From contig JBBCKI010000002.1 in NCBI GenBank assembly GCA_037190965.1, positions 1 to 64,000 of the forward strand: 64,000 nucleotides of DNA, written 5' to 3'. The notes under the pieces were generated by a model, which had not been told where the DNA came from, did no database searches, and saw nothing but the letters and a program-made list of their open reading frames with translations. The position numbers were made by a program, and so were the translations under genes. The first letter of the stretch is position 1; every line of letters starts with the position of its first letter. Shown here piece by piece: positions 1 through 26,186 of the stretch. This stretch comes from Chthoniobacteraceae bacterium. Its GTDB lineage: Bacteria > Verrucomicrobiota > Verrucomicrobiia > Chthoniobacterales > Chthoniobacteraceae.

Positions 1-242
1 TCTGGGTTTACCTCATCCTGAAAGGCAAACAGTCAGAGGGATGCTGAGCAGGAGTAAGGATCGCCGAGTGTGAATGCGGAGTCCATGGGTTGGCAGTCGT
101 GTCGAACGGATTGCCGCCACCGTGATTGAAAGCAGACGAAGGGTCCTTTTTGTCATTTTTCCAGAGTAATGATGCGGCGGCAGGTTAAATGCTACTTTCT
201 GTATGTCGATTAAAAAATAGCACATTTCTATAAAATGAAGCC

Positions 243-482
243 TTGCCTTCCCCGTCCGACAATTCCCACAAAATCGCCCGGTGCCTCGGACGCGTGATTC
301 GCCATATCCGAGAGGAAAAGGGTCTCTCGCAGGAGGACTTTGCGGAACTTACGGGCCATCACCGCACTTACATCGGCTTTTTGGAACGCGGGGAGCGCTC
401 TCCGAATGTTGAAACAGTTCAACGCATCGCTCGGGCTGTGGGGCTAAATGCCTCAGATCTTTTGAAGGAAGCGGGGTTTTGA
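243..482 (+). CDS. XRE-family (HTH_3, C-protein-like) transcriptional regulator
   Basis: IREEKGLSQEDFAELTGHHRTYIGFLERGERSPNVETVQRIARA is a typical XRE HTH. TTG start preceded by an AT-rich segment with TATAAAAT; start uncertain. Confidence 0.9.
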   Translation: MPSPSDNSHKIARCLGRVIRHIREEKGLSQEDFAELTGHHRTYIGFLERGERSPNVETVQRIARAVGLNASDLLKEAGF

Positions 483-484
483 CT

Positions 485-1090
485 AAAAGGAAGGACCAAG
501 AATTAGTCCTCCCTGAAAAGGCCCTTAAACCCGCACGGGTATAACCGAGCGGGGCCGGAGGGGTGAACAGGAGGTATAGGGAGCGCGAGCCAAAAAGATG
601 CCGCCCCCGCACATACGCCTGCGGATGTTTCATACCCGCAACTACCAGGAGGTGTTTGATCCGGTCTTCGGCAAATCCTCCGAGGAAACTGATACGGGCT
701 TCCTTCAAGGAAGCAAAACGGTGGATACATGCGAACTCTCCCTTGAATGAGCGAATAAATCGCTCCCGGAGGCCGGTTTTGCTCCGGTGTATATGGAGCG
801 GTGAATTTCTGAATAATGCGGTAGCCTTTGACGAAGGCCCAATGGAGCTTGGAGCCAAAACCTGGCGACTGTCATGCCGTAGAGTTGAACCGCGAGGAGC
901 CCCATGGAGCCAGCCGAAGCAGGTCAAAACTGTTTCCCCCAAGGCCCTCTCTGCGGTCTTTGCGCAGGCGGTAGACTCCGTGCCCTTGCGGCGGCCAAGG
1001 AAACTTCAAATTATCTCAAACCAAACTTCAGTGGAACTACCTCAATTTGAAGGCCTTGTACCGTTCAACCAAGAGCTTTGTGTATCGCCC
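485..1090 (+). ncRNA. Putative structured non-coding RNA upstream of the RT gene (boundaries and strand approximate)
   Basis: Dense run of hairpins (492-510, 676-686, 698-714, 749-765, 766-776, 781-799, 824-838, 963-990, 996-1058) plus a long-range 7-bp pair, 884-890 GTTGAAC with 1063-1069 GTTCAAC. No credible protein; lies directly 5' of an RT gene. Confidence 0.55.
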
Positions 1091-1136
1091 TGAACTCACA
1101 GCTTGCGTTGCTAATTTTTTTATTAAAAATGAGTCT

Positions 1137-4100
1137 ATGTTAGTAAAAGACCAGTGGCATGAGCGCAACGAAGCGGTTGATCGAGCAAGGCGGGAAATAG
1201 ACATCGTTGAAATTGCAGAGGATCTAGGTATTCGGGTCATTGGCCGGAGTAGCTCCCAACCGAAAGCATTGTGTCCGTTCCACGAGGACCGGACGCCATC
1301 TCTCGTCTTCTATAGAGGTCAAGAAAGTAATCAATATCATTGCTTCGCCTGCGCTGCGCATGGAGATATTTTTGATTTGATAAAGCAAAGCCACGACTGT
1401 GATTTCGCAGGCGCTCTACAATGGCTTGTTGAAAAAAAAGGACTCGTGCTACCGTCCCGGCGAAGTAATGGACAGGAAAGCTTTTCCGATCCGCGCAGGT
1501 ACGGATTATTCGTAGCATATCAAATTTATCGAAAGGAGTCGCGTCAAGAAAAGGCAGGTTGTGCCGAGTTTGCCGCTCTTCGTGGGTTCACCCAAGAGTT
1601 TTTACATAAGGCTGAGGTTTTCTATGCAGGATCTCTAAAGCTTTCAAACGGAGACAATTCATCAGATAGGGAAATCTCTGACGCATTGGAGGCTGCGGGA
1701 CTTCTCGTTCGCAAGCGAAATCAGCAGCCAAGCTCTGGAGCAGGCACTCTCCCGCTCAATCTTCCTCCTCGGGACTTTTTTTGGTCTCCGCGTGTTCTTT
1801 TCACTATACGTGACGATAAGGGGAATGTCGCAGGATTTGTAGGACGATCGCTTCGAGAAGACGATACTCCAAAGTATCTGTTTTCACCCGGATTTCAGCG
1901 CAGCAAGACGTTGTATCGATTTGATAAGGTTCAGAAAAGTCTACTAGAAACCACCGCCCCAGTAGGGGACACCGTAGAGCTTTTCATTGTCGAGGGTCTT
2001 CTAGATGCCCTCCGATTAGAATCCCTAGGCTTGAATTGTGTCGCAATTTTTGGCTCACATATAACAGATGATCAGGCAAACGCCGTGGCGCGGCTTGCAA
2101 CTCGGCTCGAAAGTAAAGGAATTCAACTTGCTGTACATCTCTTCCTTGATGCAGACAACGCCGGTTTACGTGGTTCAATTGCCTCGGTCGCTGCCTTACT
2201 AGTGAAATCAGCGGCAACCACCGGCTTCATGGTTGATGTAATTGCTCCGCCAAGCCAAGAGGGAAAACGCGATCCCGATGATATACTTCGATCGATTCAA
2301 AATCGTGAAGAAGCGCTGCAACTGCTTTATGCCTGGTGTTATTCTCCGATGGCAGCGACACTGGCATTTGCAATTGAAGAAGGCCCCGCTGAAATTGAAC
2401 GCCGTTTCAGCCAACTACCGCCCAGTCGTCAAATGCGAGCTTTTCGGGAGGTGGAGCGAAGACTGGACCGGACCCAATGGCGTTTAATTTTTGAGCGATT
2501 AAGCCCATTTTCGCGCTGGCGTGGAATAAACGGGGGAGAAGATGCAGAACAGCCCTGGCACAGTCGTATTCGCGCCTTCTTGACAGCTTCCGCAGAACAG
2601 CCTCGGCCAACGCTTGATTTAGGAAAGGCGCCTGAAAAGGATGAGGAAAATAAGTTGAATCATGCGTTGGTAGTCGCACGATCGAGCACACAACGACGAG
2701 AACTACCTGTGGATGAAGGCAGTTGGGACAGGCTTAATGCCGGTATCGACGTGACCATTCCCTATTTAAGCCAATTACTTAAAGAAGGGGCGGCGCTAGA
2801 CGAGCCAATGATTGCTGTACGAGTTCCGAAGCCAAACGGAAAATTCCGTCTAAAGGCACTCCCGTGCCCTGAATTTCTTACGATGCAGCAGTTTGTACTC
2901 AACGAACTGCTGCGTGACTACGCTGAAAGCCCCCGCTTTCGTGAATGGATTCCCGCTGTGCGATATACAACTCAAGTTGATGGAGGTATATGCGAAACGA
3001 CGGGGGGACTGAATTCCTGCGGAATCTCAGAGACCGTGAGTTTTGCATACCAGATAGATATGGACGTGGTTTCAGGCCGTATCCCGCCGCGTCGAGAAGG
3101 TATGTTCCGCCCGTACTTTGCCTGTTGGAAAGACTTCATCGATTTTATCGATAGGCGTGTCCGTGCCTGTAGAAGCGAGATTTATCACGTAGCAAGATTG
3201 GACGTTCGCAGCTTTTACGACACCCTCCATCGTTCCGCAGTCATTGACGCCATCCTGCCCGCGGTTCGAAATGGGCTACGCGAGCTTTCAGATGCAACGG
3301 AAAACGGCGCCCTCAACTGCGCTAAGCTCTTTGCTCCTGATGTCATTGATCCTGACCAGCGAGCTGGAAGGCTGGTCGATTGGCTTTGCGACCAGAGTTT
3401 TAACTATGAGTACGAGAACCCCCGTAGTGGAAAACTAGACAAAAATAGTCAAGGCATACCGCAAGGGCCAGATTTGTCCGCGTTTTTAGCGAATATTGCA
3501 CTTTTCCCTCTCGACTTCGCATTGCGATCAATGGTTGAGCAACTTGATCTTCGCCAGCAAAAGGCAACCGGAGAGAATGCGAGGCGCGGTGCCGTATACG
3601 CGAGATATGTCGACGACATCGTTATCGTTGCGCTTACCGCGAAAGATTTGGCCGAAATGAGGGCAGCCATCGAAGAGCAACTTGCCCGGATCGGTCTTGA
3701 TCTTAGCCCCAAGATTGGGCCACTGCCGGCTATGACTGAAGGCCAGCTGCGGGACTGGCTGACGGATAAGCGAGGTGCGGCACTTGGTGCATCAGGACCA
3801 TTTGCTGGACCACCTGCAAACGAACCCCTCGGAATCTGTGAACCTCTTGGAGATGCCGGCGAAATCGATCGCGGAAAGTCGCTACTCCTTCTTCATGACT
3901 CACGCCTTGATCCGCCAGACACGAACGCCTATTTACTTCTCGAGGCGGTCTCCAATGCACGACGCAGTGTTGACCTTAGGCATGGCGACCTTTCCAAAGC
4001 GGCTGCACTATTGTGGCGAGCGGCGCTTACTATCTCTGAAGATCCAGATCCGAATGGCTCGCCGAGACACGTCGCACAACGTTTTGAGAAATTATGGAAT

Positions 4101-7100
4101 CATACTTCACCTTGCAGTGGTGATTCGGGGGAATCTTACGGCGATGGAGGGAGGGCTGGGAATACCTTCCTAAATCTGCTATTTTGGCTTGACGGGTTGC
4201 ATAAAATCCTTACGTCCCGCTTGGATCGCTCGCCGGCACTTTCTAGTTCCCAGCATGAACGGATAGACAAACTTCGGAGAACGGTTGCGAAACTGGTTCA
4301 GGGTGGATTGTGCGATGAATTATCAATGTTCATTCCAAGTACCGTAATCGCCGAGCATCAACATATGCTCGATTTACGCCGTCTTGCTGTTTTCGCTGCT
4401 GCAAGTGAAACCGATCCAGATCCGTCAGTTTCCTGTATTCCCTGGATGCAAGGAATCCCTTCGGATTCGAAGGCTCGAATGGCTATTTCAATTGCTTGCG
4501 CACATAAGAGTGTTGATTTACTAACAAGGAGTTTTCACCACGACGAACAGCTCAACAGCCGAATTCTCTATCACGAGTCGATTGCCCGTCTAATCATTTC
4601 AGAGAGGTTATGCTCGGCCTCTTCAGACGCTGCGACAAATACAGGCGCTAGTGAGACGCCTGCTATTGATCCGTTGGAGCCAATTCGTAAACGGCTCGAA
4701 AGCCTCATGCGGGCTGAGCAAATCGGCGCGGGTTCCGTTCTACTAAGTATTCTGAATCTTTGGATTCCCGGCGTTGAATATACTGCTGAAGACCATCCAT
4801 GTGCCGCTGATGCAGTGGCGGCCCTTGCCCAGCTAGCGCCCACAAATTTTCAACAGTTACTAAGTCGACGAGAGCCTCTTTCACGCGCGGTTCTGGGCGG
4901 CAGTCTCACTTGGCCCGGACGAACCGTGCCAGTTCCTCCTGGCTTAGATGTCCCAGGATTAATTGGAATCAGAAGTGATGGGGAGGAAGTGACTCAAGTG
5001 GACATGCGAGGCGGTGATGTCGGATTTTATCCTCAAGATCTTGTATGGAATAGCTGTCCCATCTCGGATGAGAGACTGCAGTGGAAACGATCTGTGGCTC
5101 CTTTCACTGGACGTCAGTTATTGAAGCCACTGGATCGTGGTGACTGTAGAGCATCGAAGATGTTGCCTTGGGTTGCCGCCGCATTCCGTAGCTTAGCTGC
5201 GACCTATGATAGGAATGCGACTACCTCGTGCCCTCCGACGGCCGAAAACTTGATAGGGCCTGATCTGGATGAGCCTTTGCCCGCCGAGGCGAAGTGGGAG
5301 ATACTCGGATTTCAAGTTTCGAATAGTCGTTTGAGTGGATTTGCATTTATTCGTCGGGGGCGACGCGGGTTAGTGCCGGAGCGAGTTACAGAGTGTGATG
5401 ATTATCTTTGGCGAATAGGTACTGCGCTAGCCGATCGGCTCGGACGGATCGAATGCAGCGATTGTCTTCTTCAAATGCGATTTTTGGCTCAAGCGCATGT
5501 AGTGCATAACGATTCGGATTGGGCGGCAGAGGCGATGTTACGCTTTAGTCTATGTCGCCTCCGTGGCCGATCGATGCCACCGCATCCGCTGGCGAGATTG
5601 CAAGGCTCAAGTTTACCCGCCACGGTCGAGCGCGTGCTTCGCCGGATGGAGCAGTTTCCGGCCAGTACAGATGGGCTTGAGATTCAGCGAATGGCTCACT
5701 TGGTCGCTACCATTGCCGAAGGTCGTGCGATGAGAACGCGGCTTACACCGTCACTTGACTACACGGTTTCTGGTGGTGCTGCAGCGCTTCTTATTGATCT
5801 CGTTCGACCTTTATTCGGCTATGATGAGGAGTTAGCTGAGCGGCTTCCAAAGGTTTCTTCAAATCTGCCCTCCTGGGCTCCGTTGCGTCGTCCATCCCTC
5901 GCATGGTTATGTACGGCTTGGAGGTTTGAGGCATTGCTTGAAGATGACCCTCAGCAAAAGGAAGATCTCACCTTGCCTGCAATTGTGGCTGGCACGTTAC
6001 TTCTTGCAATTGAGTCGCAATTACGGGCGCAGGTGCTCGAACTCTGGGCTCTAACCGAAGTTCCGGTTAGGCTTAAATTGTGTGATTCATTGCCGTCATG
6101 TAATCCGGGATTGCTTCTACATCGTAAGCAGGAAGGCAAGGAGGCTTCTGAGTCAAATGAAGGCAACATCCAGTTTCTCTACCGAAAACTTTGCGATTCA
6201 ACAATGGCTGGATCGGCGGTAGGCGGAGATCTTTCGGAGGTTACAGTCTTGGGTTGGTCTGTGCTGCTGGAGTTCCTAATGCGTAGGAAGATTCGTAATC
6301 CCGAAGTTATTTCGGACATTGACGGGTTGTTTGAGAAATTGAACAAATTCCTAGGTACCGAGCTGGACCAAGGCGACGATTTTCCGTGGGGCGGCCTATC
6401 CCCAATTATAGCCGCTTGTAATGCCGTAGTTATTGAAAAAATATTTAAGGATTTGGGGCGGGTCGATCTTGCCACTGGAATTCGCGTCGAGTCAAAAGAA
6501 GCGCCACAGTTTGTCTTATCCCCGCGCCGTGGAGGGTCGGTGGATATAAGTATTCCAAGTGGCTCGCTTCGCCTCGAGTCATGGAGGATTCTATTGGCCA
6601 GTGTCCGGAATGAACCAACCAATGGAACTGAGTGCTTTTGGAACGAGCGGGACGATTGTTTTTGGCATCGCTGGTCTGAAACATGGCTAGAAGATCGGCT
6701 TGTTTCAATTGGAGTCATTCGTCCTCGGATGGCTTCACTTGCCAGCATTCCTTTTGGCGCTGTTTTGGATAAGCTGCATCAAGCCGGATATGCCACAAGA
6801 ACAGAAGCGCTCACGTTCGTAGCGCCTCCGATGAAGCGTTCGGATAGGGTATCAATTTCGGGCGGGGATTTGATCGGAATACCAGCGCATAACGGCGTGA
6901 CCGAGATCGCTGAGGCACCGAAAGTCACTGATTCGGCGGAACCGGCGCCAGCGGCAACCAGTAACACATCAGTCGACGATCCCGTATCCGCCAGTTCCCG
7001 GATATGGGATTCCCAAGAGGCTTTCGCTAGAATTGAACAAATTAAGACAGCAAGCTGGAGAAGGCGCAGTCGAAGATCGCCTCGTCATGCCCGCGTGGCA

Positions 7101-8621
7101 TTCTTCCAATGGAATGTTGACGATAGTTATCGACATCCAGTTTACGAGGCATGCGCGGTAAGAGGCGAACAGGCCGACAGGGCCAAAAAAGCGAAAGGCT
7201 CTAGACAGGAACCTGGGTCTCCTGAAATTTGGGATTCATATGGAAATCATGAGAGCTGCGCCGAACACCGTAGGCGCAAGTTACTTACTGCAGCTCTAAA
7301 AGCCTGCAAAGAGTTTGAAGCCGATATTCTTGTACTCCCTGAGTACTCAATTCGTGCTGATACAGCCGTATGGCTGAAAGATCAACTCGCCACATTGGCT
7401 CCGGAGACCTCTATTTGGGCTGGAACCTACCGTAACGCAGCAGGGAGTTTACTGAATCTTAGTGATAGCATCAAGGTGCCAGAATGGGGTGCAGTAATGC
7501 CAATTCTACTAAGAAGAAAAGGAGAAGACGGCCCGACGGAGGTGAGTTATCGTCTAAAAAAATACCCATCTGTAGCAGCGAAGGAACTAATTTATCCGTG
7601 GCGTAGTGCGATCAAACCTATGTTTAATCCGTTGGATGCAAGGTTCGATCCGCGTGCTTATGTCTCGGAGCTTATCTGTTCCGAGGCGTTTTTACTTACC
7701 AGCCCTATCAACCATATTGCAATGGCAAGGGAGTATGGAAAAATGTCCCAGCGATTTGGATTTCCCGGGGTATCGATAAGTGACCTTGAAGAGCAGGTCA
7801 AAACTGATATCACGGCCTTTTCAAAAGCGACATCTTTGAGCGAATCCATTACCCCTCCAAGACTCATTTTACTGGTGCCGGCGATGACAACGCGGACCGC
7901 CGATTATTCGATTATGGGGCAAGCTGGCTTTCTAGCGGCTGGTATCACCACCGTTTTCTGTAGTGCAGCAGGCGGTTCTCTGCGTGGGGAGAGTTGTGTA
8001 ATTGGCCATGATGGTTGGGGCCGTGAGGCACAAGATGAAAGAGGAATGCCAAAGAGGGGTCCTTATCATGGAGTAAGCCCCGGAATCTTCGATCCCAAGG
8101 ATTTGCCCAATCACGGGAAGCTTGGAATGAAAGAACAGGCTCTTGTCATAGCAGATATCGATCCAGTTTATTCAATAGAAGGGAAGCCGCGCCCGCAGAT
8201 GCTTCCACCACCATTGGAGCTTGTTGCTCATTTGCCGGTGATTGAATCTTGGATTTCAGATCGAGATGCCTACTGCGTTTGTGACAATGTTAAAAATAGA
8301 ACATCTGAAATTGAATCCGTAGTCCGATTGCTTTTAGACACTCTTGAGAAAGAAGGGGTTATATCAAATTCCGCCGTTCATAGAGAACCGAAAAAGTTAG
8401 TTGATGTTCTGAAGAAGCTAGCTGATTTGGTTGGAAAAAAAGACGGCGAAGGGCATTGGTTACATCGTCGTGCCGAGGCTTATCAAAGCGAGCATGCAGC
8501 GACTCCAAGTCCATGGCCTCCGCCATGCGCAGTGGACTGGCTTTGGGTCGACGTGGGTGACCAAGCAACCGTTGCCTATCCTAAAATCGAAATCCCACCG
8601 TATTCGAACACGCCATCCTGA
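1137..8621 (+). CDS. Giant fusion: DnaG-like primase (CHC2 ZnF + TOPRIM) - reverse transcriptase - unassigned middle - nitrilase/carbon-nitrogen hydrolase (UG/Abi, DRT-like RT)
   Basis: CPFHxDxxPS..CFAC (1272-1352). TOPRIM IVEGLLDA (E at 1992) and LDAD (2148-2156). RT motifs PKPNGKFR, LDVRSFYD, GIPQG (3453), YARYVDD (YVDD 3606-3617). Nitrilase LPEYS (E 7341), KKYPS (~7557-7562), LICSE (C 7677). ATG at 1137 preferred over TTG at 1047. Confidence 0.92.
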   Translation: MLVKDQWHERNEAVDRARREIDIVEIAEDLGIRVIGRSSSQPKALCPFHEDRTPSLVFYRGQESNQYHCFACAAHGDIFDLIKQSHDCDFAGALQWLVEKKGLVLPSRRSNGQESFSDPRRYGLFVAYQIYRKESRQEKAGCAEFAALRGFTQEFLHKAEVFYAGSLKLSNGDNSSDREISDALEAAGLLVRKRNQQPSSGAGTLPLNLPPRDFFWSPRVLFTIRDDKGNVAGFVGRSLREDDTPKYLFSPGFQRSKTLYRFDKVQKSLLETTAPVGDTVELFIVEGLLDALRLESLGLNCVAIFGSHITDDQANAVARLATRLESKGIQLAVHLFLDADNAGLRGSIASVAALLVKSAATTGFMVDVIAPPSQEGKRDPDDILRSIQNREEALQLLYAWCYSPMAATLAFAIEEGPAEIERRFSQLPPSRQMRAFREVERRLDRTQWRLIFERLSPFSRWRGINGGEDAEQPWHSRIRAFLTASAEQPRPTLDLGKAPEKDEENKLNHALVVARSSTQRRELPVDEGSWDRLNAGIDVTIPYLSQLLKEGAALDEPMIAVRVPKPNGKFRLKALPCPEFLTMQQFVLNELLRDYAESPRFREWIPAVRYTTQVDGGICETTGGLNSCGISETVSFAYQIDMDVVSGRIPPRREGMFRPYFACWKDFIDFIDRRVRACRSEIYHVARLDVRSFYDTLHRSAVIDAILPAVRNGLRELSDATENGALNCAKLFAPDVIDPDQRAGRLVDWLCDQSFNYEYENPRSGKLDKNSQGIPQGPDLSAFLANIALFPLDFALRSMVEQLDLRQQKATGENARRGAVYARYVDDIVIVALTAKDLAEMRAAIEEQLARIGLDLSPKIGPLPAMTEGQLRDWLTDKRGAALGASGPFAGPPANEPLGICEPLGDAGEIDRGKSLLLLHDSRLDPPDTNAYLLLEAVSNARRSVDLRHGDLSKAAALLWRAALTISEDPDPNGSPRHVAQRFEKLWNHTSPCSGDSGESYGDGGRAGNTFLNLLFWLDGLHKILTSRLDRSPALSSSQHERIDKLRRTVAKLVQGGLCDELSMFIPSTVIAEHQHMLDLRRLAVFAAASETDPDPSVSCIPWMQGIPSDSKARMAISIACAHKSVDLLTRSFHHDEQLNSRILYHESIARLIISERLCSASSDAATNTGASETPAIDPLEPIRKRLESLMRAEQIGAGSVLLSILNLWIPGVEYTAEDHPCAADAVAALAQLAPTNFQQLLSRREPLSRAVLGGSLTWPGRTVPVPPGLDVPGLIGIRSDGEEVTQVDMRGGDVGFYPQDLVWNSCPISDERLQWKRSVAPFTGRQLLKPLDRGDCRASKMLPWVAAAFRSLAATYDRNATTSCPPTAENLIGPDLDEPLPAEAKWEILGFQVSNSRLSGFAFIRRGRRGLVPERVTECDDYLWRIGTALADRLGRIECSDCLLQMRFLAQAHVVHNDSDWAAEAMLRFSLCRLRGRSMPPHPLARLQGSSLPATVERVLRRMEQFPASTDGLEIQRMAHLVATIAEGRAMRTRLTPSLDYTVSGGAAALLIDLVRPLFGYDEELAERLPKVSSNLPSWAPLRRPSLAWLCTAWRFEALLEDDPQQKEDLTLPAIVAGTLLLAIESQLRAQVLELWALTEVPVRLKLCDSLPSCNPGLLLHRKQEGKEASESNEGNIQFLYRKLCDSTMAGSAVGGDLSEVTVLGWSVLLEFLMRRKIRNPEVISDIDGLFEKLNKFLGTELDQGDDFPWGGLSPIIAACNAVVIEKIFKDLGRVDLATGIRVESKEAPQFVLSPRRGGSVDISIPSGSLRLESWRILLASVRNEPTNGTECFWNERDDCFWHRWSETWLEDRLVSIGVIRPRMASLASIPFGAVLDKLHQAGYATRTEALTFVAPPMKRSDRVSISGGDLIGIPAHNGVTEIAEAPKVTDSAEPAPAATSNTSVDDPVSASSRIWDSQEAFARIEQIKTASWRRRSRRSPRHARVAFFQWNVDDSYRHPVYEACAVRGEQADRAKKAKGSRQEPGSPEIWDSYGNHESCAEHRRRKLLTAALKACKEFEADILVLPEYSIRADTAVWLKDQLATLAPETSIWAGTYRNAAGSLLNLSDSIKVPEWGAVMPILLRRKGEDGPTEVSYRLKKYPSVAAKELIYPWRSAIKPMFNPLDARFDPRAYVSELICSEAFLLTSPINHIAMAREYGKMSQRFGFPGVSISDLEEQVKTDITAFSKATSLSESITPPRLILLVPAMTTRTADYSIMGQAGFLAAGITTVFCSAAGGSLRGESCVIGHDGWGREAQDERGMPKRGPYHGVSPGIFDPKDLPNHGKLGMKEQALVIADIDPVYSIEGKPRPQMLPPPLELVAHLPVIESWISDRDAYCVCDNVKNRTSEIESVVRLLLDTLEKEGVISNSAVHREPKKLVDVLKKLADLVGKKDGEGHWLHRRAEAYQSEHAATPSPWPPPCAVDWLWVDVGDQATVAYPKIEIPPYSNTPS

Positions 8622-8726
8622 CTAGATGACATTGGTCTGTTCTAGGCCTGCACTTCCGCTTGAGGGGAAATTAGATTCAGTGTGTCACTTAAAAAGTGAC
8701 TTCGGCAATGAACAAGCTGAAAGCTA

Positions 8727-10085
8727 CTATTCAAGTCCGGCGATTTGCTCCAAAACCTTCGTCAGCGCATCGTCATTGCATCCTATCTCCCCTAGCAGTA
8801 AAATCCAGAGCAGGGCCTTCAACCTTTTATTCACAATCATCATTTCCTTCGGTTGGATGAATTTTTTGGATTCAGGATTTCCATTATAATGCGTCAGATA
8901 ATTTCGAGTGTATCTAATACGATCGGCCATTTCGTGGCTCGAAGGAAACAGTTTTTTGGCGTGATCTGAATGAACCTGAAAAAGGTCAAACAAGCGATCA
9001 TCCAGACGTTTGTTGTTTGCCGCGAGCAAGGTTTGTCTAACCCAATCTTGAGATTCAGCATCGATCTTTAGCAAGATTTTCGAGACGCGATTCAGGTGTT
9101 CGGCCCGGCTACATTGGGCAGACCCGAATCTTCCGGCTCGTGCATGGAACACTTCGACCGCTTGCACAAGGAAAATAAAGCTAGTTTCCAGAGGCAGCTT
9201 TGTCCAAAAGGTAGCGGAACAGAAGAGATTGATCGCCGGCATAAACCTTTCTCGAACGTTGTTCCAGCTAGTGAGGATTTCTTGGAATGATGCGGAGAAC
9301 GTCTGGAAATCCGTGATTCTCCATGGGCTGATCTTTTGTTCCTGTTGGCGAGGAAGGCTAAGAATTTCACAAGTAGAAGGGTTTTTTCCGGGAATCCATG
9401 GATCGCTTTCGAATAGCTCAATTTGTTCGCATCTAATCATTTCTCCAATCAGTAGAGAAAACAGATCGCTCGTCCAAGGAACCCATTTATCCAAGCATTC
9501 CTTGATTGAAATAAGGCTTTCAAAATGAAACCAAAAAGCGTGAGAAGGGTGTATTTCAAAACTATCGCGCCCCCCCTTTAGAGAGCATTGCACATCGATT
9601 CGAAATCGAATTCCGTCTTCGATCTCATGGACAATCTCGGCCTGTTCGAGATTCCTCTTCCAAGCATATTCTGTTTCGCTTAGCTGAAAACCTGTTACGA
9701 TAGGAAAGCCCAGCCATTCATGTAGATGCGGAACACTTATGCGAAGGGCTAAAAACCGCTTTTCATCAAGGGATCCCAGCTCCACGCCTCTCGTAGCGAC
9801 TGAGGCAATAAATCGCCTCTCTGTCATTCCTCCGCTAAGGGAGTGACCATTACTGCAACAGTCAAACAACGATATTGGCCTATCATGTGCATCGCGACCT
9901 TGAATGTGCGCTCTATCTTGGCAGGCATCGTTGGCTGCCATTTTTAGCAGTGAAACGAAATTAGAGGTAACCTGGGGATCTTTTGTGGTCAACTCCGGGA
10001 GTCCATTCGGACTCAATCGGAGCACGCCGAACACGGGAGATGAACTGGGCTCAAGCCACCAACGGCCTTCGATGTATTCACTCAT
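8727..10085 (-). CDS. ApeA-like HEPN-domain protein (ApeA N-terminal domain + HEPN RNase)
   Basis: N-terminal GRWW..P....V.GVL pattern, mid FIFLVQAVEVFH, C-terminal R-x4-H motif RNYLTH (8889-8906). Start placed at MSEYIEG because the longer ORF overlaps the upstream gene. Confidence 0.8.
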   Translation of the reverse strand: MSEYIEGRWWLEPSSSPVFGVLRLSPNGLPELTTKDPQVTSNFVSLLKMAANDACQDRAHIQGRDAHDRPISLFDCCSNGHSLSGGMTERRFIASVATRGVELGSLDEKRFLALRISVPHLHEWLGFPIVTGFQLSETEYAWKRNLEQAEIVHEIEDGIRFRIDVQCSLKGGRDSFEIHPSHAFWFHFESLISIKECLDKWVPWTSDLFSLLIGEMIRCEQIELFESDPWIPGKNPSTCEILSLPRQQEQKISPWRITDFQTFSASFQEILTSWNNVRERFMPAINLFCSATFWTKLPLETSFIFLVQAVEVFHARAGRFGSAQCSRAEHLNRVSKILLKIDAESQDWVRQTLLAANNKRLDDRLFDLFQVHSDHAKKLFPSSHEMADRIRYTRNYLTHYNGNPESKKFIQPKEMMIVNKRLKALLWILLLGEIGCNDDALTKVLEQIAGLE

Positions 10086-10221
10086 TTCTAATTGAATGGC
10101 TGTCAAGTGTTGTCGCTTGGATCTCGACCTATCGAGCACAATCCGGATAGTAAGACTGCGCCTGACAGAGAGATTATTGGCTCTGATTCTTCTGTCGCAC
10201 CTGGCATTCGAGAAATCATGC

Positions 10222-13200
10222 TTAGATAAACCTACTTCCCCAAACCTGCTCTGTGAAATAGTCAGGCTTCTTCTCGGCAAATTTCTCCTCCATGTACTCT
10301 CGTTTTGTCAAAACCAGAGACTTTGGAATAAACTCCGAAAAATCGGGACAACCAGGAACAGGGTCACCATGCATTGAAGGCAATTTTGACACCGCGTCAC
10401 CCATTGCCTTCCATATAAGTGGCAGAACTTCGTAACACGGCTGCTGCTGTTTTATATTCCGACTGATATCAAGCAATCGACGATATGCTAATGCTCCAGG
10501 CGATCCCAAATCGGCGTGAGCTCCACCCACTTCACCCGTAATCGCCTCTACGCGCGCCATCCATTGAACCGCGGGATGGTTAAGATTGAAATAGTCGAAG
10601 CCAAACGAAAAGTGATTTGAGAACGGTTTCGGAAACAGAAATGCTTTTCTGAATAATGCCCCTCCTCCATCGGCTGAATTGGCAGCCCTCAATCGCCCCC
10701 ACTCGTTCCGATCCAAGGTTCCACCATTCAAAAGCCTTCTCCGGAGATCTCGTACATTCTCCGGGTTAGGTTTAGCCCCCGGATGATGGACTTCGAGGGG
10801 CTGCGGCAGTTCAGATGCTGACGGGAGGGTTACAAACTCAAGATCAACCGGAAGCAAGACAGCGTTGATGTAGGCATTCTGCAACATCCCGATCGCTCCA
10901 CTAACAAGCGACTGGGAAGAGAAGCTGTGGCCAAAGCGCAAGAGCCACGTCTGGCCTTGAAAACCTTTAACCCGATCGATCTTCCGAGCCCCAATCTCTA
11001 AAGCTAATCGGGGAAACATGGTTTCCTCTAAGGATCTCGGCAGGATGCGGAAACCATCTTCGTATGCTTCGCGAGCTTCGACACATTTGAAGAACCCATC
11101 TGCACTTAGCACCAAAACGGGATACTCCTCCCAAGGGAGTGCCTCCGCCACATTAATGTTTCCCACTCCAAGAAACTTCTCAAGAGCCACTAGCTTGTGG
11201 AGTCTGTTGAGTGGGGGTAGGGCGCGGAGAGTCATGATCTCCTTGCGAAATGCATACGTCCGGGCTTGGATGGTAATCCAACCCGGAGTTTGCTCTGGAT
11301 TCCGTGTAAAACTCGTTCGTGAAGCAGTTAAACTACTCCGCGCTTCAGACCGATAGTTTATCCACGCATGCACTGGAAATGGATTATCGCCAATCTGCTG
11401 TCCGATTTGATCCATCCCGGTTACGTAAATTCCGTCCTGATAAACAAAGGTACTTGGATATTCACCGTCTGCTAAATTTCTGCCTTTGAATTTCACTAAG
11501 CTTCCGAGCGAACCAGCAAAGACCTGCGGAAATTCGGTGCCGTCGGGACCAGTAACAACCATCGTTTCCTTTTCGAGCATGCCGCCATTACGAATCTGCA
11601 TATCGCCGCCAACCTCAAAAGGCATAGGGAAGGTTATAAATCCTTCAATGTGCGTGCACCTGAGATCTTTCTCCAAATTTACTCGATATTGCCCAAGGAA
11701 ATCTGGATTGGGACAAGCAATAAATCTTTGCAGTTCATCCCTCCATCGATAGGCTCCATTGCATTGCCAAATTTCTATATCTTGTCCCTCCCATTTGGAT
11801 CGATATGCAGCATCCACCGAGGGGTGCAAAATGAGTAGGCGGGTTCCAGCTTCATCCACCAAAATGGGAACTCGAACAAAGCCAGCCAACTGTTTCAAAT
11901 AATTCCCGATGTTGAAGTCCGCCACGCTTTCGTTCTCTTTGAGAAGCTTGGCAATCTTTTCAGGCAGAACCTCGACTCGTACACTCGTGCCTTCCCAAGA
12001 CGGGTCAGTAAATTCTGTGATCTCGAAATGGCGGTCAATACTTGGTATGGTGACGATAATGCCCTGATCATCTCCTCCGTTCGCACTAAGTCTCCGACTT
12101 TTGATACTGATCTGGTCTCCAACCATAAAACAGCTCAGAAGCCCTATACCAAAACGGCTTATAGCGTCCAGTTTGAGGTTCTCGCTGGCAAGCTCCTTGC
12201 TTGTGTAGTAGCTTGAACCAATTCGTGCAAGATAGGTCGTAAGGATGCGAACATCCATTCCGACACCATAGTCGCGACAGGTGATCGCAATTCGACCGTT
12301 TGGAAGCGGTTCCGCTGTAAAATGGATGACGAAGTCTGATTCGCTACGCTGGATCGCACCCAAATAGCCACTCTGCCGGGCGCATAGCTGACTCGTTGCA
12401 TCTATTGCGTTTTGCAACAGCTCACGAATAAAGATGTAAGGATTGTGTCCATAAATTTCTTGGGCTAAAATCCGAAAAACGGCGTGCCGATCAAACTCAA
12501 AACGGACGTTTGTAGGGGCGAAACCTTCCGCCTGGACTTCCCATTTCAACGTTGAGTCCAGACACGAGAATCGAGTGGGGCTATTTGTCGCCTGATGTTC
12601 GAGATAGGATTGTCTCATTCGGCTTTCCTCGACAAGAAGGTCAACGCCATGCTCCAACTGGTCCCTTAAATATTCGTAGAGATCGGTCAGCGCTGGCCAA
12701 AGAGACGGTTGCTGGCAGGTGCCTCGAATCACTACCTGCCAGCGGTTTCTGCCGATGTCTACGCAGTCAATGTGGTCTAAGGCAGCGTGTTTGTCCCATT
12801 CCCGAATTGAAGTCGGATCGGCAGGGCCCACAAAACGACGTAACGCATAAGGAGTGCGATCTCTTCCGACATCGAAGAGATCAGCCAAACGTACGACCAG
12901 TGCGATTAATCTCACATGGACTCGTTGAGTTGCCACCGTCCGGAGTGGACGAAACCTCTTGGCATCGCGCAAGACTTCGTAGTCAAGCCAGTGCCCCACA
13001 CAGATATCTCGCGCCGATTCGCACAAGGCACTATCGAGGTCGAGATTTGCCAAAAATTCGTGGGCTCGGTCACCACTACGCAAAGCATGTGTCTGTCGAA
13101 TGTATTCTCGCCAGTAGGGCTGATCGAGACTTGTCAATGCGGGATAGTTGCCGTGAACGTCGCGCTTCACCCCTTCTTGCTTTGCGAAGCCTGCCAACCA

Positions 13201-13587
13201 AGCTAACTCTCGCGAAGCAAGCGGCAGTTGATGATTTCTGGGAAGCGCTGTGAATTCTCGGACGATTCTCTCACGCTCGTCGTTTCCCACAGCCATCCCC
13301 CAGTCATGACAGTATAGTCCAACAATCAGAAGGAAACGATCGACATCGGCTAGGGCAAGCAGTGTTTCAGATCCGAACAGCTGCGCGGCGATGTCAAAAA
13401 GCGCAATGATGTGGTTGGACCAGTTGTGGGGCGTATACTCGGGAAACGTTCTTGGAATGTACTCCTCCAATTGAGGTCGTAAAGTCTCTTCAAGTCGCGT
13501 GAGAATATTTCGATAGTCGATCACCCCGCGAGTGTTTTGCACCTCAGTGGGAAAGCTCGCAATTATCTGGTCGCGAAAACAAGTCAT
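10222..13587 (-). CDS. HD-CE-type HD domain fused to an Hsp90-like (GHKL) ATPase
   Basis: HD-fold motifs YTPH...H, CHDWGM, H..RS, GH, LVVRLADLFD. GHKL motifs FIRELLQNAIDA, DYGVGM, SRFGIGLLSCFM, GTSV. Confidence 0.85.
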   Translation of the reverse strand: MTCFRDQIIASFPTEVQNTRGVIDYRNILTRLEETLRPQLEEYIPRTFPEYTPHNWSNHIIALFDIAAQLFGSETLLALADVDRFLLIVGLYCHDWGMAVGNDERERIVREFTALPRNHQLPLASRELAWLAGFAKQEGVKRDVHGNYPALTSLDQPYWREYIRQTHALRSGDRAHEFLANLDLDSALCESARDICVGHWLDYEVLRDAKRFRPLRTVATQRVHVRLIALVVRLADLFDVGRDRTPYALRRFVGPADPTSIREWDKHAALDHIDCVDIGRNRWQVVIRGTCQQPSLWPALTDLYEYLRDQLEHGVDLLVEESRMRQSYLEHQATNSPTRFSCLDSTLKWEVQAEGFAPTNVRFEFDRHAVFRILAQEIYGHNPYIFIRELLQNAIDATSQLCARQSGYLGAIQRSESDFVIHFTAEPLPNGRIAITCRDYGVGMDVRILTTYLARIGSSYYTSKELASENLKLDAISRFGIGLLSCFMVGDQISIKSRRLSANGGDDQGIIVTIPSIDRHFEITEFTDPSWEGTSVRVEVLPEKIAKLLKENESVADFNIGNYLKQLAGFVRVPILVDEAGTRLLILHPSVDAAYRSKWEGQDIEIWQCNGAYRWRDELQRFIACPNPDFLGQYRVNLEKDLRCTHIEGFITFPMPFEVGGDMQIRNGGMLEKETMVVTGPDGTEFPQVFAGSLGSLVKFKGRNLADGEYPSTFVYQDGIYVTGMDQIGQQIGDNPFPVHAWINYRSEARSSLTASRTSFTRNPEQTPGWITIQARTYAFRKEIMTLRALPPLNRLHKLVALEKFLGVGNINVAEALPWEEYPVLVLSADGFFKCVEAREAYEDGFRILPRSLEETMFPRLALEIGARKIDRVKGFQGQTWLLRFGHSFSSQSLVSGAIGMLQNAYINAVLLPVDLEFVTLPSASELPQPLEVHHPGAKPNPENVRDLRRRLLNGGTLDRNEWGRLRAANSADGGGALFRKAFLFPKPFSNHFSFGFDYFNLNHPAVQWMARVEAITGEVGGAHADLGSPGALAYRRLLDISRNIKQQQPCYEVLPLIWKAMGDAVSKLPSMHGDPVPGCPDFSEFIPKSLVLTKREYMEEKFAEKKPDYFTEQVWGSRFI

Positions 13588-13600
13588 GCTGCGTTATGGC

Positions 13601-14060
13601 TCAAACGTTGGTGGGGTGTGTCCACGTGAACTCGGAGAAAATGGACCGGCTAATTACAAAGGAAACATTCTTTTCGTTCAATGATTTGAACTGGTGTTCT
13701 TCGGTCATCATTTTGATCCGGGTCATACCCCGTCGAACTGTAACCAAAGGGAAAGGAACCCTCGGTATAAGTATTCTGACTAGCCCCGTAGGACGTTGGT
13801 ACAGACAAGAGACCAGGCGGAGGGGACAGGCGAACCGATCCCAATTCGGTAGCACTTAACTCGTCGAGAAGATCAGGATGCTCCTTCCATCTGGCATCCT
13901 CGTTTGGGGACTCCCCTCGTCGGTGTATCCGTGACAATAGGAAGCGCTCATAAAGTCCAAAAGTCATGGCCAGAGCACCAAATGCGCCATTGTCATTTGG
14001 GACCGAGCGAAGTGCACCTAAGGGGATTATGACCCACCTTTCAAAAAACTCGAAGGACAT
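13601..14060 (-). pseudogene. Probable degraded gene fragments upstream of the HD/Hsp90 gene
   Basis: Two overlapping short ORFs in different frames (13650-14060, 13601-13855). The first ~75 aa look protein-like, then quality drops. No family recognised. Confidence 0.35.
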
Positions 14061-14247
14061 GACAATGTTCTACCTTCTAAGAGGAAGAGTTGCAACCCAT
14101 GTAAGGACACACTGAATAATGCCCCCTCTGGAGGAAGTGTAGATTGATAGGAATTTGGGGCGGGTAGATTCTGTTTGTCGGAGAAATTGTGGGTGCTGGG
14201 CGGCAGGACTTCCTACGGCGATGGGCGGTCACTCCCCATCTTCAAGG

Positions 14248-14370
14248 TCATACGCGTGTGCTGACCATGAGGGATTTTTCGGGCAGCACAAGATTGGCCA
14301 ATGCGAAGAGGATCTCGAGTTTGGCGAGGTTCTTACGGATCCCTCGATACCGCACTTTCGTATAGCCGAA
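14248..14370 (-). mobile_element. IS5-family transposase C-terminal remnant
   Basis: Manual translation of the minus strand gives FGYTKVRYRGIRKNLAKLEILFALANLVLPEKSLMVSTRV*, the characteristic IS5 transposase C-terminus. The rest of the gene is missing; too short for the ORF track. Confidence 0.85.
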
Positions 14371-14640
14371 GGGTGTTGATCGCCCATCTGGGCAGGCACG
14401 TAATGAAGCGACCTTGGCCGGAGTATTAAGCTCTCGCCTTGGTTACGCCAAAGGAGAGCGCGACCGCTGGAAGAGGAGAAGGCTTCGCAAGAAAATGACC
14501 CGAGCGTTAATACAAGAAGCGGTTATAGCAAGAAGCTGGCGGGTTGGAGGTCTCACGCCCCTGTCGGAATTCCTGATGGTCGGCTCGGCCAACGTGCCGC
14601 ACATCCTTCCCCCGCCAAGCCGCAATCCGCGAATGAAATC

Positions 14641-14662
14641 ACCGACGGATTACCGACGGATT
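14641..14662. repeat. 11-bp tandem direct repeat ACCGACGGATT x2 near the island/tRNA junction
   Basis: Seen directly, ~105 bp from the tRNA 3' end. Confidence 0.8.
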
Positions 14663-14767
14663 TTGAGGGTAAAAGTGGTGTTTTATGGGGGTATATGGGG
14701 ATTTTTGAAAGGAGCGAGAAAAGACCAACTCCGACCTTTAACTCACTTGTTTACAGGACTTTATGAG

Positions 14768-14842
14768 TGGTGTCCCCGCCGAGAATCGAACTCGGATCTA
14801 AGGTGTAGGAAACCCTTGTTCTATCCGTTGAACTACGGGGAC
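14768..14842 (-). tRNA. tRNA-Arg(CCT)
   Basis: GTCCCCG acceptor stem, D arm GTTC/GAAC, anticodon loop TTCCTAC, T loop TTCGATT, encoded CCA. Confidence 0.95.
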
Positions 14843-14991
14843 AAATGTACAATCAGGCAAATCCAGTCGCCTAGGGAGTTATTATCTTCTGGCACAACGG
14901 CTGGGCAAGCAGTTTCGCAATCCTCGAGATAGGCGCGGCTTGCCTTCATCCCCCATCCCCTTGCCTGGTCCAGGTATTTTCTGGAAACGCT

Positions 14992-16959
14992 TCAACATGG
15001 CAGCGCGGCCAGGATTGTTTTCACGACCTCATGAGGCTCGATGGACTTCATGCAGCGAAAGTCGATGGGGCACTCGCGCAGAAAGCAGGGGCTGCATTCG
15101 ACTTGATGCCGCAGGACGCGGTGACCGGGGCCGAGGGGGCCGGTCAGGCGAGGCTCCGTGGAGCCGAAGACCGAGACGGTTGGCACTCCGAGCGCGGCGG
15201 CCAAATGCATGGTACCGGTGTCGTTGCTCAAAAGCAGGCTGCACTCGGTGAGGCGGTCCATCAATTCGCCAAGCGTTGTTTTGCCAATGAGATTGACGAC
15301 TTTGACGTCGATGCCGCTCTTTGAAGCGGTGAGCTTTGAAATGATTTCCGCGCCGACGGCTGCATCTCCTCCCACCCCGAACAGCACCCACTCGCAATCT
15401 CGATGCTCCGCCACGGCTCGCGCGACCTCGGCGAAACGCTCGGGGAGCCATCGCTTGGCGGGGCCATACTCTGCGCCCGGGCAAAGCCCGATCTTGATCG
15501 GCGCGCCCGCTGCCCTTGGGCGGGGCGAAGAGGCTGCCGCCGGGGTGGCAAAAAACTGCTCGGGCTTCGCTCCCTCCAGGCCGTCGAGTGACGCGCCGAG
15601 CCTGCGGGCGATCTCCAGATAATGATGGACCTGATGCCCGGCGGGCTGCGGTTTCTTTTCCTTCTTCTTCGATGGAAGCATCAGTTGATTAAGCAGCCAT
15701 CGCCGCCCCTTGGCCGGGTAGCCGACCCGCCTCGGAATCCCCGCCAGCCAAACCTCCAGGCCCGTGCGGATCGAGTTCGGCAGGATAACCGCGACATCGA
15801 ACTTCCCTCGAATCTTCCCCGCAACGGCGAAAACCGTGTCACTGGCCTCAATCTCGATCACCTCGTCCACTTCGGCCACGCGTTTCCAATACTCGGCGAG
15901 CTTTGCTTTGACGAGAACGGTGACCCGAGCGTCAGGGCGACCGCGCTTGATCGCCTGCACGGCAGGCGTGGTCATGACGGCGTCGCCCAGCCAGTTGCTG
16001 GAGCGCACCAGGATACGAAACGGCTTAAGTTGCTCGGGCGCAAACCCGGGCGGCAGCACCACCCCTCGCTTATATTCGGAGAGCAAAAAATTCGGGCTGG
16101 GCGTTTTCCAGCGGTTATGAACCCAGAACCAATCCGCCGGTGACCGTCGGATGAGCGTTTCCAACTCCTGATTGACCTGCGCGGTCAGCACCGCCGGGTC
16201 GCGCGTGGCCGTGGTGTCGATGGGCGCGGAAATCGACATCCGCCACCGTCCCGGGCCGTCGGTGGAGATCGCCGCGGAAAGGAGCACGGCCCCGGACCGC
16301 AAGGCCATCGTGGCCGCGATGGGGGTCGTGGAAGCCAGCCGCCCGAAGAGCGGACACCAGATCCCCTTGTCGCCCGCGTGCTGGTCGATCAGGACGCCAA
16401 CGCCGCCGCCGCCATCACGGATGAGCGCGATGGCCCCGGTAAAGCCCTCCTTGCGTTCGAAAAGCCGCAGCCCCTGCCGGGCGCGGGCCGCGCGAATATC
16501 CGCGTCGATGAATTCATTGCCGAGCCGCTGATAGATCGTCCCCCCTTTGTTGGGGAAAATGAGCGGGCAAACCTGCGCGAGGATCTCCCAATTTCCCGAA
16601 TGGCTGATGGCCATTACGACCCCGCGGCTTTTCGCTTCGGGCGAGAGAAAGAAATCGAGGTTGTCGATCTTGACCAGCTTGAGGATTTCATCGGGCGAGA
16701 GTGTGGCCACCTTGATGCTGGAGACGAGGTTCGCCCCAAGAAGGGAAAAATGCGCGCGCGCGATCTTTCGCAACTCGGCAGGCGACTTCTCACCGCCAAA
16801 CGCGATGGAAAGGTTCGCGAGAGCGAGTCGCCGATAAGGTGCCAGTGCCCAGTAAGCAAGCCCCCCTGCCATCGCGCCGAAACGGAAGCTGACACCTAGC
16901 GGGAGCAGGGCAATTCCCCGCGACACCGCGCGGTAGATAAAATAAACAAGGCGATCCAT
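14992..16959 (-). CDS. waaF: Fused lipid A acyltransferase (LpxL/HtrB-like) + LPS heptosyltransferase II (GT9)
   Basis: N-half HSGNWE, LIDQH, WFWVHNRWK. C-half ILVRSSNWLGDAVM, PGAEYGPAKRW, NDTGTMHLAAA. Confidence 0.9.
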   Translation of the reverse strand: MDRLVYFIYRAVSRGIALLPLGVSFRFGAMAGGLAYWALAPYRRLALANLSIAFGGEKSPAELRKIARAHFSLLGANLVSSIKVATLSPDEILKLVKIDNLDFFLSPEAKSRGVVMAISHSGNWEILAQVCPLIFPNKGGTIYQRLGNEFIDADIRAARARQGLRLFERKEGFTGAIALIRDGGGGVGVLIDQHAGDKGIWCPLFGRLASTTPIAATMALRSGAVLLSAAISTDGPGRWRMSISAPIDTTATRDPAVLTAQVNQELETLIRRSPADWFWVHNRWKTPSPNFLLSEYKRGVVLPPGFAPEQLKPFRILVRSSNWLGDAVMTTPAVQAIKRGRPDARVTVLVKAKLAEYWKRVAEVDEVIEIEASDTVFAVAGKIRGKFDVAVILPNSIRTGLEVWLAGIPRRVGYPAKGRRWLLNQLMLPSKKKEKKPQPAGHQVHHYLEIARRLGASLDGLEGAKPEQFFATPAAASSPRPRAAGAPIKIGLCPGAEYGPAKRWLPERFAEVARAVAEHRDCEWVLFGVGGDAAVGAEIISKLTASKSGIDVKVVNLIGKTTLGELMDRLTECSLLLSNDTGTMHLAAALGVPTVSVFGSTEPRLTGPLGPGHRVLRHQVECSPCFLRECPIDFRCMKSIEPHEVVKTILAALPC

Positions 16960-25643: not shown

Positions 25644-25717
25644 GCGCTCGTAGCTCAATTGGATAGAGCATCTGACTACGGATCAGAAGGTTTCAGGTTC
25701 AAATCCTGACGGGCGCA
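25644..25717 (+). tRNA. tRNA-Arg(ACG)
   Basis: Cloverleaf with anticodon loop CTACGGA and T loop TTCAAAT; CCA not encoded. Confidence 0.95.
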
Positions 25718-26166: not shown

Positions 26167-26186
26167 AATGTGCTTGCTCTAAACTC

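Follow-up and report, generated by a model that had tools for sequence, protein, structure and literature searches.

A full-length, divergent UG29 primase, reverse transcriptase and nitrilase chain in a low-GC island of a Chthoniobacteraceae bacterium, and a candidate residue for protein priming

Is a single bacterial gene that joins a primase, a reverse transcriptase (RT) and a nitrilase the core of a new defence system, assisted by the regulatory gene and the spacer that precede it, or is it a member of a family that is already catalogued? The question is raised by the first 64,000 nucleotides (positions 1 to 64,000, here called the window) of contig JBBCKI010000002.1, assembly GCA_037190965.1, of a Chthoniobacteraceae bacterium, where a reading based on the letters only, which we call the sequence-only reading, had proposed a new system composed of an XRE regulator, a putative noncoding RNA (ncRNA) and the three-enzyme protein. 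Our answer, held with a probability of about 0.85, is that positions 1137-8621 encode a UG29 protein that is full length and apparently functional, and that stands as a candidate abortive-infection defence system of one gene, located in a horizontally acquired island of low guanine plus cytosine content (GC). The coordinates of all features are collected in Table 1.

The frame is uninterrupted on the forward strand from its first TTG at 1047 to 8621, and its translation of 2,524 amino acids is free of stops. The first in-frame ATG, at 1137, gives 2,494 amino acids, a product identical to the public database protein P0002; because that protein begins at the same ATG, the gene was taken as 1137-8621, which is the likely start. 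Among the PADLOC models, RT_UG29 (PDLC03767) matches with E=0 and 1,633.8 bits, aligning residues 41-2521 of the 2,524-residue numbering with positions 3-2279 of a profile of 2280. The runner-up models were RTasDnaG-like (187.5 bits, 1e-55, residues 38-423) and other RT models with at most 51.4 bits; Drt1a, with 43.4 bits, covers the RT core only (residues 687-880) and gives no full-length match. The score of this family-specific hidden Markov model points to a placement in the UG29 clade.

In the sections of Mestre et al. 2022 (PMC9226505) that describe them, UG29 proteins are the largest RTs of the UG/Abi group, almost 2,500 amino acids long, with an N-terminal DnaG-type primase followed by the RT and a C-terminal C-N hydrolase. 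They form Class 3 together with UG1, UG5, UG6 and UG24, are enriched in defence islands, were formerly mislabelled UG10, and are listed there without experimental validation. The protein of the window has the same order, the same size of about 2,500 amino acids and the same long linker region, and it is likewise a single gene in a defence island; no architectural difference from the family was seen. Since size and domain order fit that description and RT_UG29 matches from end to end, the architecture is already catalogued, and the locus is a genuine, intact, divergent member of a known family. The sequence-only reading had put the three-enzyme architecture forward as a candidate for novelty, while allowing that it might already be catalogued, and had itself named a match of this kind as refuting the novelty, a claim that we therefore abandon.

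The three enzymes, in turn, are real in one chain and apparently active, as had been read from their motifs. Conservation was evaluated in an alignment of the 56 longest of 67 database homologues, the shorter or partial ones (P0017, 18, 20, 23, 25, 26, 28, 31, 36, 67 and 68) being excluded. In the primase part, Pfam recognises Zn_ribbon_DnaG (1.3e-16, residues 41-136 of the 2,524-residue reading), DNAG_N (8.6e-10, 168-295) and Toprim_2 (7.4e-5, 313-413); the NCBIfam dnaG model TIGR01391 matches with 2.4e-44, and the profile of the 56 homologues, compared with the Protein Data Bank (PDB), finds Aquifex DnaG (2au3) with 3.6e-52 over the first ~390 residues. The CHC2 ligands C46, H49, C69 and C72 are kept in every aligned homologue whose N-terminus is present (the first Cys codon is 1272-1274 and the His codon 1281-1283), while E286 (codon 1992-1994) and D338/D340 (DxD, 2148-2156) of the TOPRIM domain are invariant in 56/56; in fact, strict conservation extends to all six acidic residues of the TOPRIM domain and to the zinc ribbon.

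The RT part is recognised by Pfam as RVT_1 (6.2e-8, residues 796-889 of the same 2,524-residue reading), and its motifs are invariant in all 56 proteins: Q776/G777 of IPQG (3462-3467) and Y824, D826 and D827 of YVDD (residues 824-827, 3606-3617). Its profile matches Drt2 (1.6e-10) and DRT1 (9yfd, 4.8e-7) in the PDB; the latter match, together with the reported position of UG29 beside UG1 and UG5 in Class 3 (PMC9226505, same sections), bears out the supposed kinship with RT-nitrilase systems. An AlphaFold2 model of residues 590-1789 reached a predicted local distance difference test score (pLDDT) of 81.7 and a predicted TM-score (pTM) of 0.82. Structural alignment with VIA-align gave RT-domain matches up to Z 14.8 over model residues 1 to ~325, and the top Foldseek matches of this part are UG15/DRT4 (9l9s and 9vdo, E 5e-6 to 1e-5) and Abi-P2 (7r08), which are template-independent UG/Abi polymerases.

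At the other end of the chain, E2069 (7341-7343), C2181 (7677-7679) and E2183 are invariant in 56/56 and K2141 (7557-7559) is kept in 55/56. Residues 1950-2524 gave no Pfam match even at E<=1, and the 56-sequence profile gave no match for this domain in the PDB. Modelled with AlphaFold2, the C-terminal 535 residues reached pLDDT 88.9 and pTM 0.93, and Foldseek aligns the model with 4izt (E 2.5e-6, TM 0.61 on the target) and, in 102 matches at E<=0.001, with amidases of the nitrilase superfamily. It is thus the predicted fold, with the conserved E-K-C residues, that identifies the domain as a nitrilase, the sequence searches having given nothing.

Between RT and nitrilase lies a middle region in which the Pfam search gave no match, and the protein atlas, queried with residues 930-1990, returned nothing usable (best score 0.87, unnamed clusters, under the trust level). 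DRT6, DRT4, AbiK and Abi-P2, which have helical C-terminal domains, align past the palm into the first helical part with Z 11-13 and a root-mean-square deviation of 5-6 Å, weak evidence for an alpha-repeat-like domain just after the palm in the model. Past it, Pfam and the atlas assign no fold to ~700 residues; VIA-align compared the 1,200-residue model with 48,161 chains, and RT matches made up the reported hits, so that the middle region was barely probed.

Table 1. Features of the UG29 locus and its surroundings in the window (strand + is forward).
Feature	Positions	Strand	Basis
XRE-family helix-turn-helix (HTH) gene, 79 amino acids from TTG	243..482	+	HTH_3 3.1e-17; PADLOC 'Control_protein' 7.4e-17
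Decayed rve (DDE) transposase remnant, two frameshifts	560..1000 (approx.)	-	local alignments to the rve transposase of locus L045
UG29 gene, single chain of 2,494 amino acids: DnaG primase, RT, middle region, nitrilase	1137..8621	+	open reading frame; PADLOC RT_UG29; P0002
DnaG-type primase (CHC2 zinc ribbon, RNA-polymerase core, TOPRIM)	1167..2285	+	Pfam; TIGR01391; PDB 2au3
Reverse transcriptase fingers/palm	2814..3788	+	RVT_1; PDB profile; AlphaFold2 model
Loop RGAGxGxS/YGP after the palm, conserved, low model confidence (Ser886 codon 3792-3794)	3771..3857	+	alignment; AlphaFold2
Middle region, ~1,050 amino acids without known family: helical, then beta-rich block, then helical	3858..7013	+	AlphaFold2 secondary structure
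C-terminal nitrilase-superfamily domain and helical tail	7014..8618	+	AlphaFold2; Foldseek; conserved E-K-C
ApeA-type HEPN protein, 517 amino acids, convergent with UG29	8727..10280	-	ApeA_NTD1 2.8e-27; HEPN_Apea 1.9e-18; PADLOC PDC-S58 3.5e-43
HD-CE phosphohydrolase and GHKL/HSP90-like ATPase, 1,121 amino acids	10222..13587	-	HD-CE 4.1e-35; HSP90-family models 2.8e-23
tRNA-Arg(CCT) at the island boundary	14768-14842	-	ARAGORN; Rfam tRNA 64.8 bits; GC steps from ~0.52 to ~0.63

The presence of the primase in the same chain, which could have been peculiar to this copy, is a property of the family, as 56/67 homologues in the database have full length and keep all catalytic residues. Identity to the nearest other protein in the database is 43%, and locus L001 reaches 59% over its available part. 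A pattern scan with one genome per species gave 120 confirmed relatives, of which 80 loci were retained; the phyla represented are Verrucomicrobiota, Acidobacteriota, Planctomycetota, Pseudomonadota, Myxococcota and Bacillota. An open frame of more than 1,500 amino acids in the same orientation is found in 66/80 loci, and contig ends cut several of the other 14. The frame is split or shortened in L022, L029, L045 and L019; L022, for example, has a 257-residue zinc-ribbon open reading frame (ORF; 3989-4759) followed by one of 1,594 residues (4759-9543).

An assembly artefact was also considered. In sequencing run X1, which is possibly the source sample and hence not independent, one contig of 9,442 nucleotides spans 1154-8700 with zero differences, and pieces of primase, RT, middle region and nitrilase that are identical or differ in one letter were recovered from run X2 (of the same study as X1) and from run X3 (of another study). 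The UG29 ORF is not an assembly chimera.

In one branch of the family a further gene accompanies UG29. A DEDD exonuclease of ~300 amino acids (Pfam RNase_T, 1e-13 to 1e-18) abuts UG29 on the same strand in 11/80 loci, directly downstream in L010-L013, L015, L023, L034, L036, L037 and L054 and directly upstream in L016 (2955-3848). All 11 loci are alphaproteobacterial, and the exonuclease copies are 48-82% identical among themselves. Such a gene is absent from the window and from its genome, and the word exonuclease is absent from the main text of PMC9226505.

Several known systems share parts of this plan. Like UG29, DRT1 (UG1) and DRT5/DRT11 (UG5) are Class 3 RTs fused to a nitrilase-superfamily effector with an E-K-C triad; unlike UG29, they are about half the size (~1,200 amino acids for DRT1) and have no primase. 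The part of the 2026 UG5/DRT11 paper (PMC13436386) concerned with nitrilases places those of UG29 in their own well-supported clade, and equates DRT11 with UG5-large. UG6 has the same parts list of RT, DnaG-like primase and nitrilase, as separate genes, and UG24 has a separate DnaG-type primase gene and a phosphohydrolase that replaces the nitrilase; in the sections of PMC9226505 that treat them, UG6, UG24 and UG29 are all given without experimental test. DRT7/UG10, of Class 1, resembles UG29 in that a primase precedes a UG/Abi RT in the same chain, and differs from it in having an archaeo-eukaryotic primase (AEP) of PriS type, an alpha-Rep and an arch domain and no nitrilase, the fusion having arisen independently (PMC9226505, same sections).

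How would the three enzymes work together? The parts and their conservation are what was observed here, and their mechanism we infer by analogy. DRT1 and DRT5 are the only tested Class 3 enzymes, and both, as described in the available text of PMC13275509, need no RNA template for DNA synthesis and start it covalently on the protein. The priming site of DRT1 is Ser402, 77 residues past the catalytic Asp pair, and the DNA adducts drive the enzyme into tetramers and dormant filaments, by which the nitrilase is controlled, with abortive infection as the outcome. For the RT-nitrilases DRT1 and DRT11, abortive-infection defence is reported to require both enzymes (PMC13275509 and PMC13436386, in part). 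UG29 probably shares this logic, in which the RT product controls the nitrilase and leads to abortive infection. By analogy with DRT1 and DRT5/DRT11, its RT would make non-genomic DNA without an RNA template, this DNA would govern the oligomeric state and the activity of the nitrilase, and the nitrilase, as effector, would halt the infected cell. DNA synthesis would begin on the protein itself, at a Ser/Tyr loop past the palm, and the primase would come into play afterwards, on the single-stranded DNA so made, in the manner of the unrelated AEP primase of DRT7/UG10; in that system, the only primase-RT fusion studied, the RT is described as making protein-primed poly(dT), which the AEP-type primase copies (bioRxiv 10.64898/2026.02.16.706125, in part).

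The loop is suggested by an unusual column of the alignment. At Ser886, 59 residues past YVDD, the 56 aligned proteins have Ser in 49 cases and Tyr in 7, and across 135 unique sequences, obtained from 78 loci and 67 proteins, the count is Ser 119, Tyr 16 and no other residue. It is the sole Ser/Tyr column of 1,485 gap-free columns, the other columns with a Ser majority drifting mainly to Ala, Gly and Thr, and at least 5 changes between Ser and Tyr are required on a FastTree tree built without the loop. Moreover, the loop (model residues 320-348) has pLDDT<50 despite its conservation, and structural alignments of the RT fold stop at it, at model residues ~321-327. Ser886 is therefore put forward as a candidate protein-priming residue, the pattern being what a mobile loop may show if it presents a hydroxyl to the active site. 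Among the mechanisms considered, a start of synthesis on the protein at this loop has somewhat better than even odds.

The principal alternative is that UG29, acting alone, uses its primase first: the DnaG domain would prime single-stranded DNA, such as phage replication intermediates, with RNA, the RT palm would extend this primer as a DNA polymerase with no protein priming, and the product or a stalled complex would activate the nitrilase. DnaG enzymes require a single-stranded DNA template. Given how strictly the TOPRIM acids and the zinc ribbon are kept, the primase appears to have an essential catalytic role, for which RT priming stays a natural candidate; UG6 and UG24, moreover, keep this DnaG-type primase in a gene of its own (PMC9226505, in the sections cited), and the partnership of primase and RT is therefore ancient. 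This course of events is set against by the protein-primed, template-free synthesis of the tested Class 3 members DRT1 and DRT5 (PMC13275509, in part), by the Ser/Tyr-only loop, which fits a priming hydroxyl, and by DRT7, in which the primase works after the RT (bioRxiv 10.64898/2026.02.16.706125, in part). On balance we regard primase-first synthesis as possible and rather unlikely.

Protein priming at Ser886 has, for its part, to be weighed against further observations. The authors of the DRT1 study report, in the text available, that other Class 3 DRTs do not conserve Ser402 (PMC13275509), a statement that also speaks for the primase-first mechanism. The profile alignment to DRT1 (9yfd) stops at chain residue 350, 9yfd is absent among the Foldseek matches, and Ser886 is at most a possible counterpart of Ser402; the restriction of the column to Ser and Tyr could also be explained by phosphorylation at this position or by a hydrogen bond of structural importance. 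In addition, the literature searched on UG29, on UG6/UG24 and on the combination of DnaG, RT and nitrilase yielded no study of UG29 defence, DNA synthesis or nitrilase activity. A more specific form of the protein-primed mechanism, in which the enzyme primes on its own Ser/Tyr (Ser886), the DnaG primase makes an RNA copy of the tethered single-stranded DNA, itself synthesised without a template, and the protein-linked DNA:RNA hybrid gates the nitrilase, is offered as a tentative proposal and is doubtful as a whole. The DEDD exonuclease of the alphaproteobacterial branch could trim such a DNA-RNA adduct.

The surroundings of the gene agree with a role in defence. GC is 0.46-0.54 over positions 1-15,000 and mostly 0.56-0.66 beyond, with later dips to 0.51-0.54 at 26-28, 44-45 and 53-54 kb, and the step coincides with the tRNA gene. 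A search with the UG29 profile covered 61 genomes, namely the genome of the window (G000) and 60 relatives, 5 of them of the same genus, and only G000 matched beyond the primase part; the matches of the 60 relatives are confined to profile positions 3-483, in frames of 260-715 amino acids, and appear to be mostly ordinary dnaG genes. Because of the GC step, the tRNA gene and the lack of a match past the primase part in these 60 genomes, the UG29 region is, on compositional and comparative grounds, a horizontally acquired defence island. The window begins at contig base 1, and the left end of the island is out of view; no Phage_integrase match was found in the island, and no repeat of the tRNA end that could mark its border was found within 1-15,200.

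The idea of a tRNA-side island with defence-type genes thus stands, the neighbours being the ApeA-type HEPN protein and the HD-CE protein of Table 1. The UG29 genes of relatives likewise lie among defence genes, adjoining HsdM and HsdR of Type I restriction-modification and GmrSD. An 87-residue ORF at 8626-8889, tried as a partner gene of UG29, has no family match and no homologue in the 80 loci and overlaps the end of the convergent ApeA gene; it is probably not a gene. The HD-CE part of the 10222-13587 protein has a weak match (2.2e-5) to the C-terminal phosphohydrolase region of PADLOC RT_UG24, and a domain resembling the effector of UG24, also of Class 3, thus stands as a separate gene beside UG29. 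About 2.3 kb past the window end, at G000:C2:66313-67368, a 636-residue frame matches only positions 4-362 of the UG29 profile; it is probably the ordinary dnaG of the genome, which would make the UG29 primase an extra copy. Farther along the window, a second tRNA gene, tRNA-Arg(ACG) at 25644-25717, is followed by a low-GC stretch at 26001-28000 (0.51-0.52 vs ~0.6), which may be another inserted element.

The same setting could be read in favour of a gene with no part in defence, that is, a module for the replication or maintenance of a mobile element, with primase and polymerase serving its replication and the nitrilase unrelated to it. The DNA is imported, transposase debris lies alongside, the region is cut by the contig end, and integrases and transposases often adjoin the related loci. 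This reading is nevertheless very improbable in view of the defence neighbours here and in relatives (ApeA, HsdM/HsdR and GmrSD), of the reported enrichment of UG29 in defence islands and of the requirement for both enzymes in DRT1 and DRT11; nor were replication or conjugation genes seen beside UG29 among the ORFs and Pfam matches of the window.

There remains the region upstream of UG29, to which the sequence-only reading had assigned both a regulator and an RNA. The XRE gene is a real HTH_3 gene, but its inclusion in the system did not hold. Among 123 ORFs, the nearest two upstream of UG29 in 65 loci, HTH_3 was found in L011 and L045 (81 amino acids, 9.3e-5); L009 was added by a search of 149 ORFs, all those of at least 55 amino acids in the 1.6 kb ahead of UG29 in 16 loci, the closest relatives among them; tblastn of the XRE protein of the window against the 80 loci gave a single weak match, 2.5 kb upstream in L052. 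Because HTH_3 lies upstream in just 3/68 related loci, the XRE gene is, by this comparison, an occasional neighbour and not a UG29 component. The genes of L009 (2843-3961) and L011 (2521-3627) are of another kind, joining HTH_3 to a Peptidase_M78 (ImmA/IrrE-like) domain in ~370 amino acids (369 in L011) just upstream on the same strand, unlike the 79-residue XRE protein of the window.

The spacer at 483-1136 (654 nucleotides), which had been proposed as an ncRNA for its hairpins, did not turn out to be conserved. The RNA fold of the whole spacer has z = -1.86, with 0/20 shuffles as good, and the last 131 nucleotides ahead of the start codon have z = +0.52, no better than shuffles. There was no Rfam match in the spacer, no similarity in a blastn search of 1-1136 against the 80 related loci and no second copy of the spacer in the genome; a conserved structured RNA beside UG29 was not found via Rfam, folding or conservation in the 80 loci, no covariance search for a new RNA having been made. 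As to signals, sigma-70-like promoters in 1-1300 numbered 0 vs 0.8 expected and terminator-like sites 3 vs 1.8±1.3 expected, and neither promoter-like nor terminator-like sites were found in 8400-9000.

Most of the spacer, at ~560-1000, is, to judge from its minus-strand translation, insertion-sequence debris. That strand reads as an rve-type transposase, in its core and C-terminal part, with two frameshifts interrupting it: frame one, from ~1000 to 870, aligns with the middle of the L045 rve transposase, frame two, at 859-776, has an 'FT.PY.P.QN' stretch (tblastn E 8e-5), and frame one then resumes with 'ERFIRS.K.E...'. Local alignments to the L045 transposase score 75 and 64 vs 31±5 and 27±4 for shuffles, 0/300 shuffles reaching them, and the pieces are colinear. 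Pfam rve_3 stays below threshold on the spacer (E 0.07-0.14), and no closer transposase copy was found by tblastn against plasmids or by tblastx against the own genome. As a consequence of this insertion, the XRE gene is separated from UG29 and just ~130 nucleotides of native upstream sequence remain. In L004, L049 and L056, moreover, the upstream gene (HsdM, HsdR and GmrSD, respectively) ends 10-21 bp before the UG29 ORF, with start codons as called, and there is therefore no room for an upstream RNA gene in these loci. The XRE gene and the transposase debris are features of the copy in the window and not of the UG29 family, and by these comparisons the XRE gene and the whole spacer lie outside the UG29 system.

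Two points temper this conclusion: an XRE-type gene does occur upstream in those three loci and local regulation may thus occur here, and the transposase remnant is supported by the two local alignments and a sub-threshold Pfam match. The flank itself may vary between strains in the sample because the X1 contigs break twice, at ~774-798 and at ~1140-1154 (the latter 3-17 nucleotides into the UG29 coding sequence), and the piece between the breaks has a depth of 4.2 vs 7.65 for the gene contig, the upstream flank being joined to the gene across two graph junctions. The reading in which XRE regulator, upstream ncRNA template and three-enzyme protein form one new system, with the primase making the primer for complementary DNA, could appeal to the position of the XRE gene on the same strand 654 nucleotides upstream, to its best PADLOC match, a restriction-system 'Control_protein', to the ncRNA that DRT2, DRT3 and DRT9 require (PMC9226505, in part) and to a spacer that folds slightly better than shuffles, and yet it is the least credible of all, given the rarity of HTH_3 upstream, a region 1-1136 unlike the 80 loci and Rfam, the shuffle-like final 131 nucleotides, the transposase remnant, the 10-21 bp gaps, Class 3 relatives that need no RNA template (PMC13275509, in part) and an architecture already catalogued.

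With the XRE gene and the ncRNA removed as components, a false lead is eliminated and a minimal construct is defined, namely 1137-8621 with ~130 bp of upstream sequence. The locus is an ordinary, divergent member of its family, and what is new is confined to two leads that were not found in the literature searched: a candidate priming residue that is only ever Ser or Tyr, and a conserved exonuclease partner in one UG29 branch. If the tethered DNA is indeed copied into RNA, UG29 would provide the first demonstrated case of a bacterial-type (DnaG) primase acting on an immune enzyme's own product, and the DNA-RNA adduct would be a sensor for phage nucleases or helicases. UG29, in which a single chain carries three enzymes that act on nucleic acids or small molecules, offers a compact system for asking how primase, RT and nitrilase are coupled.

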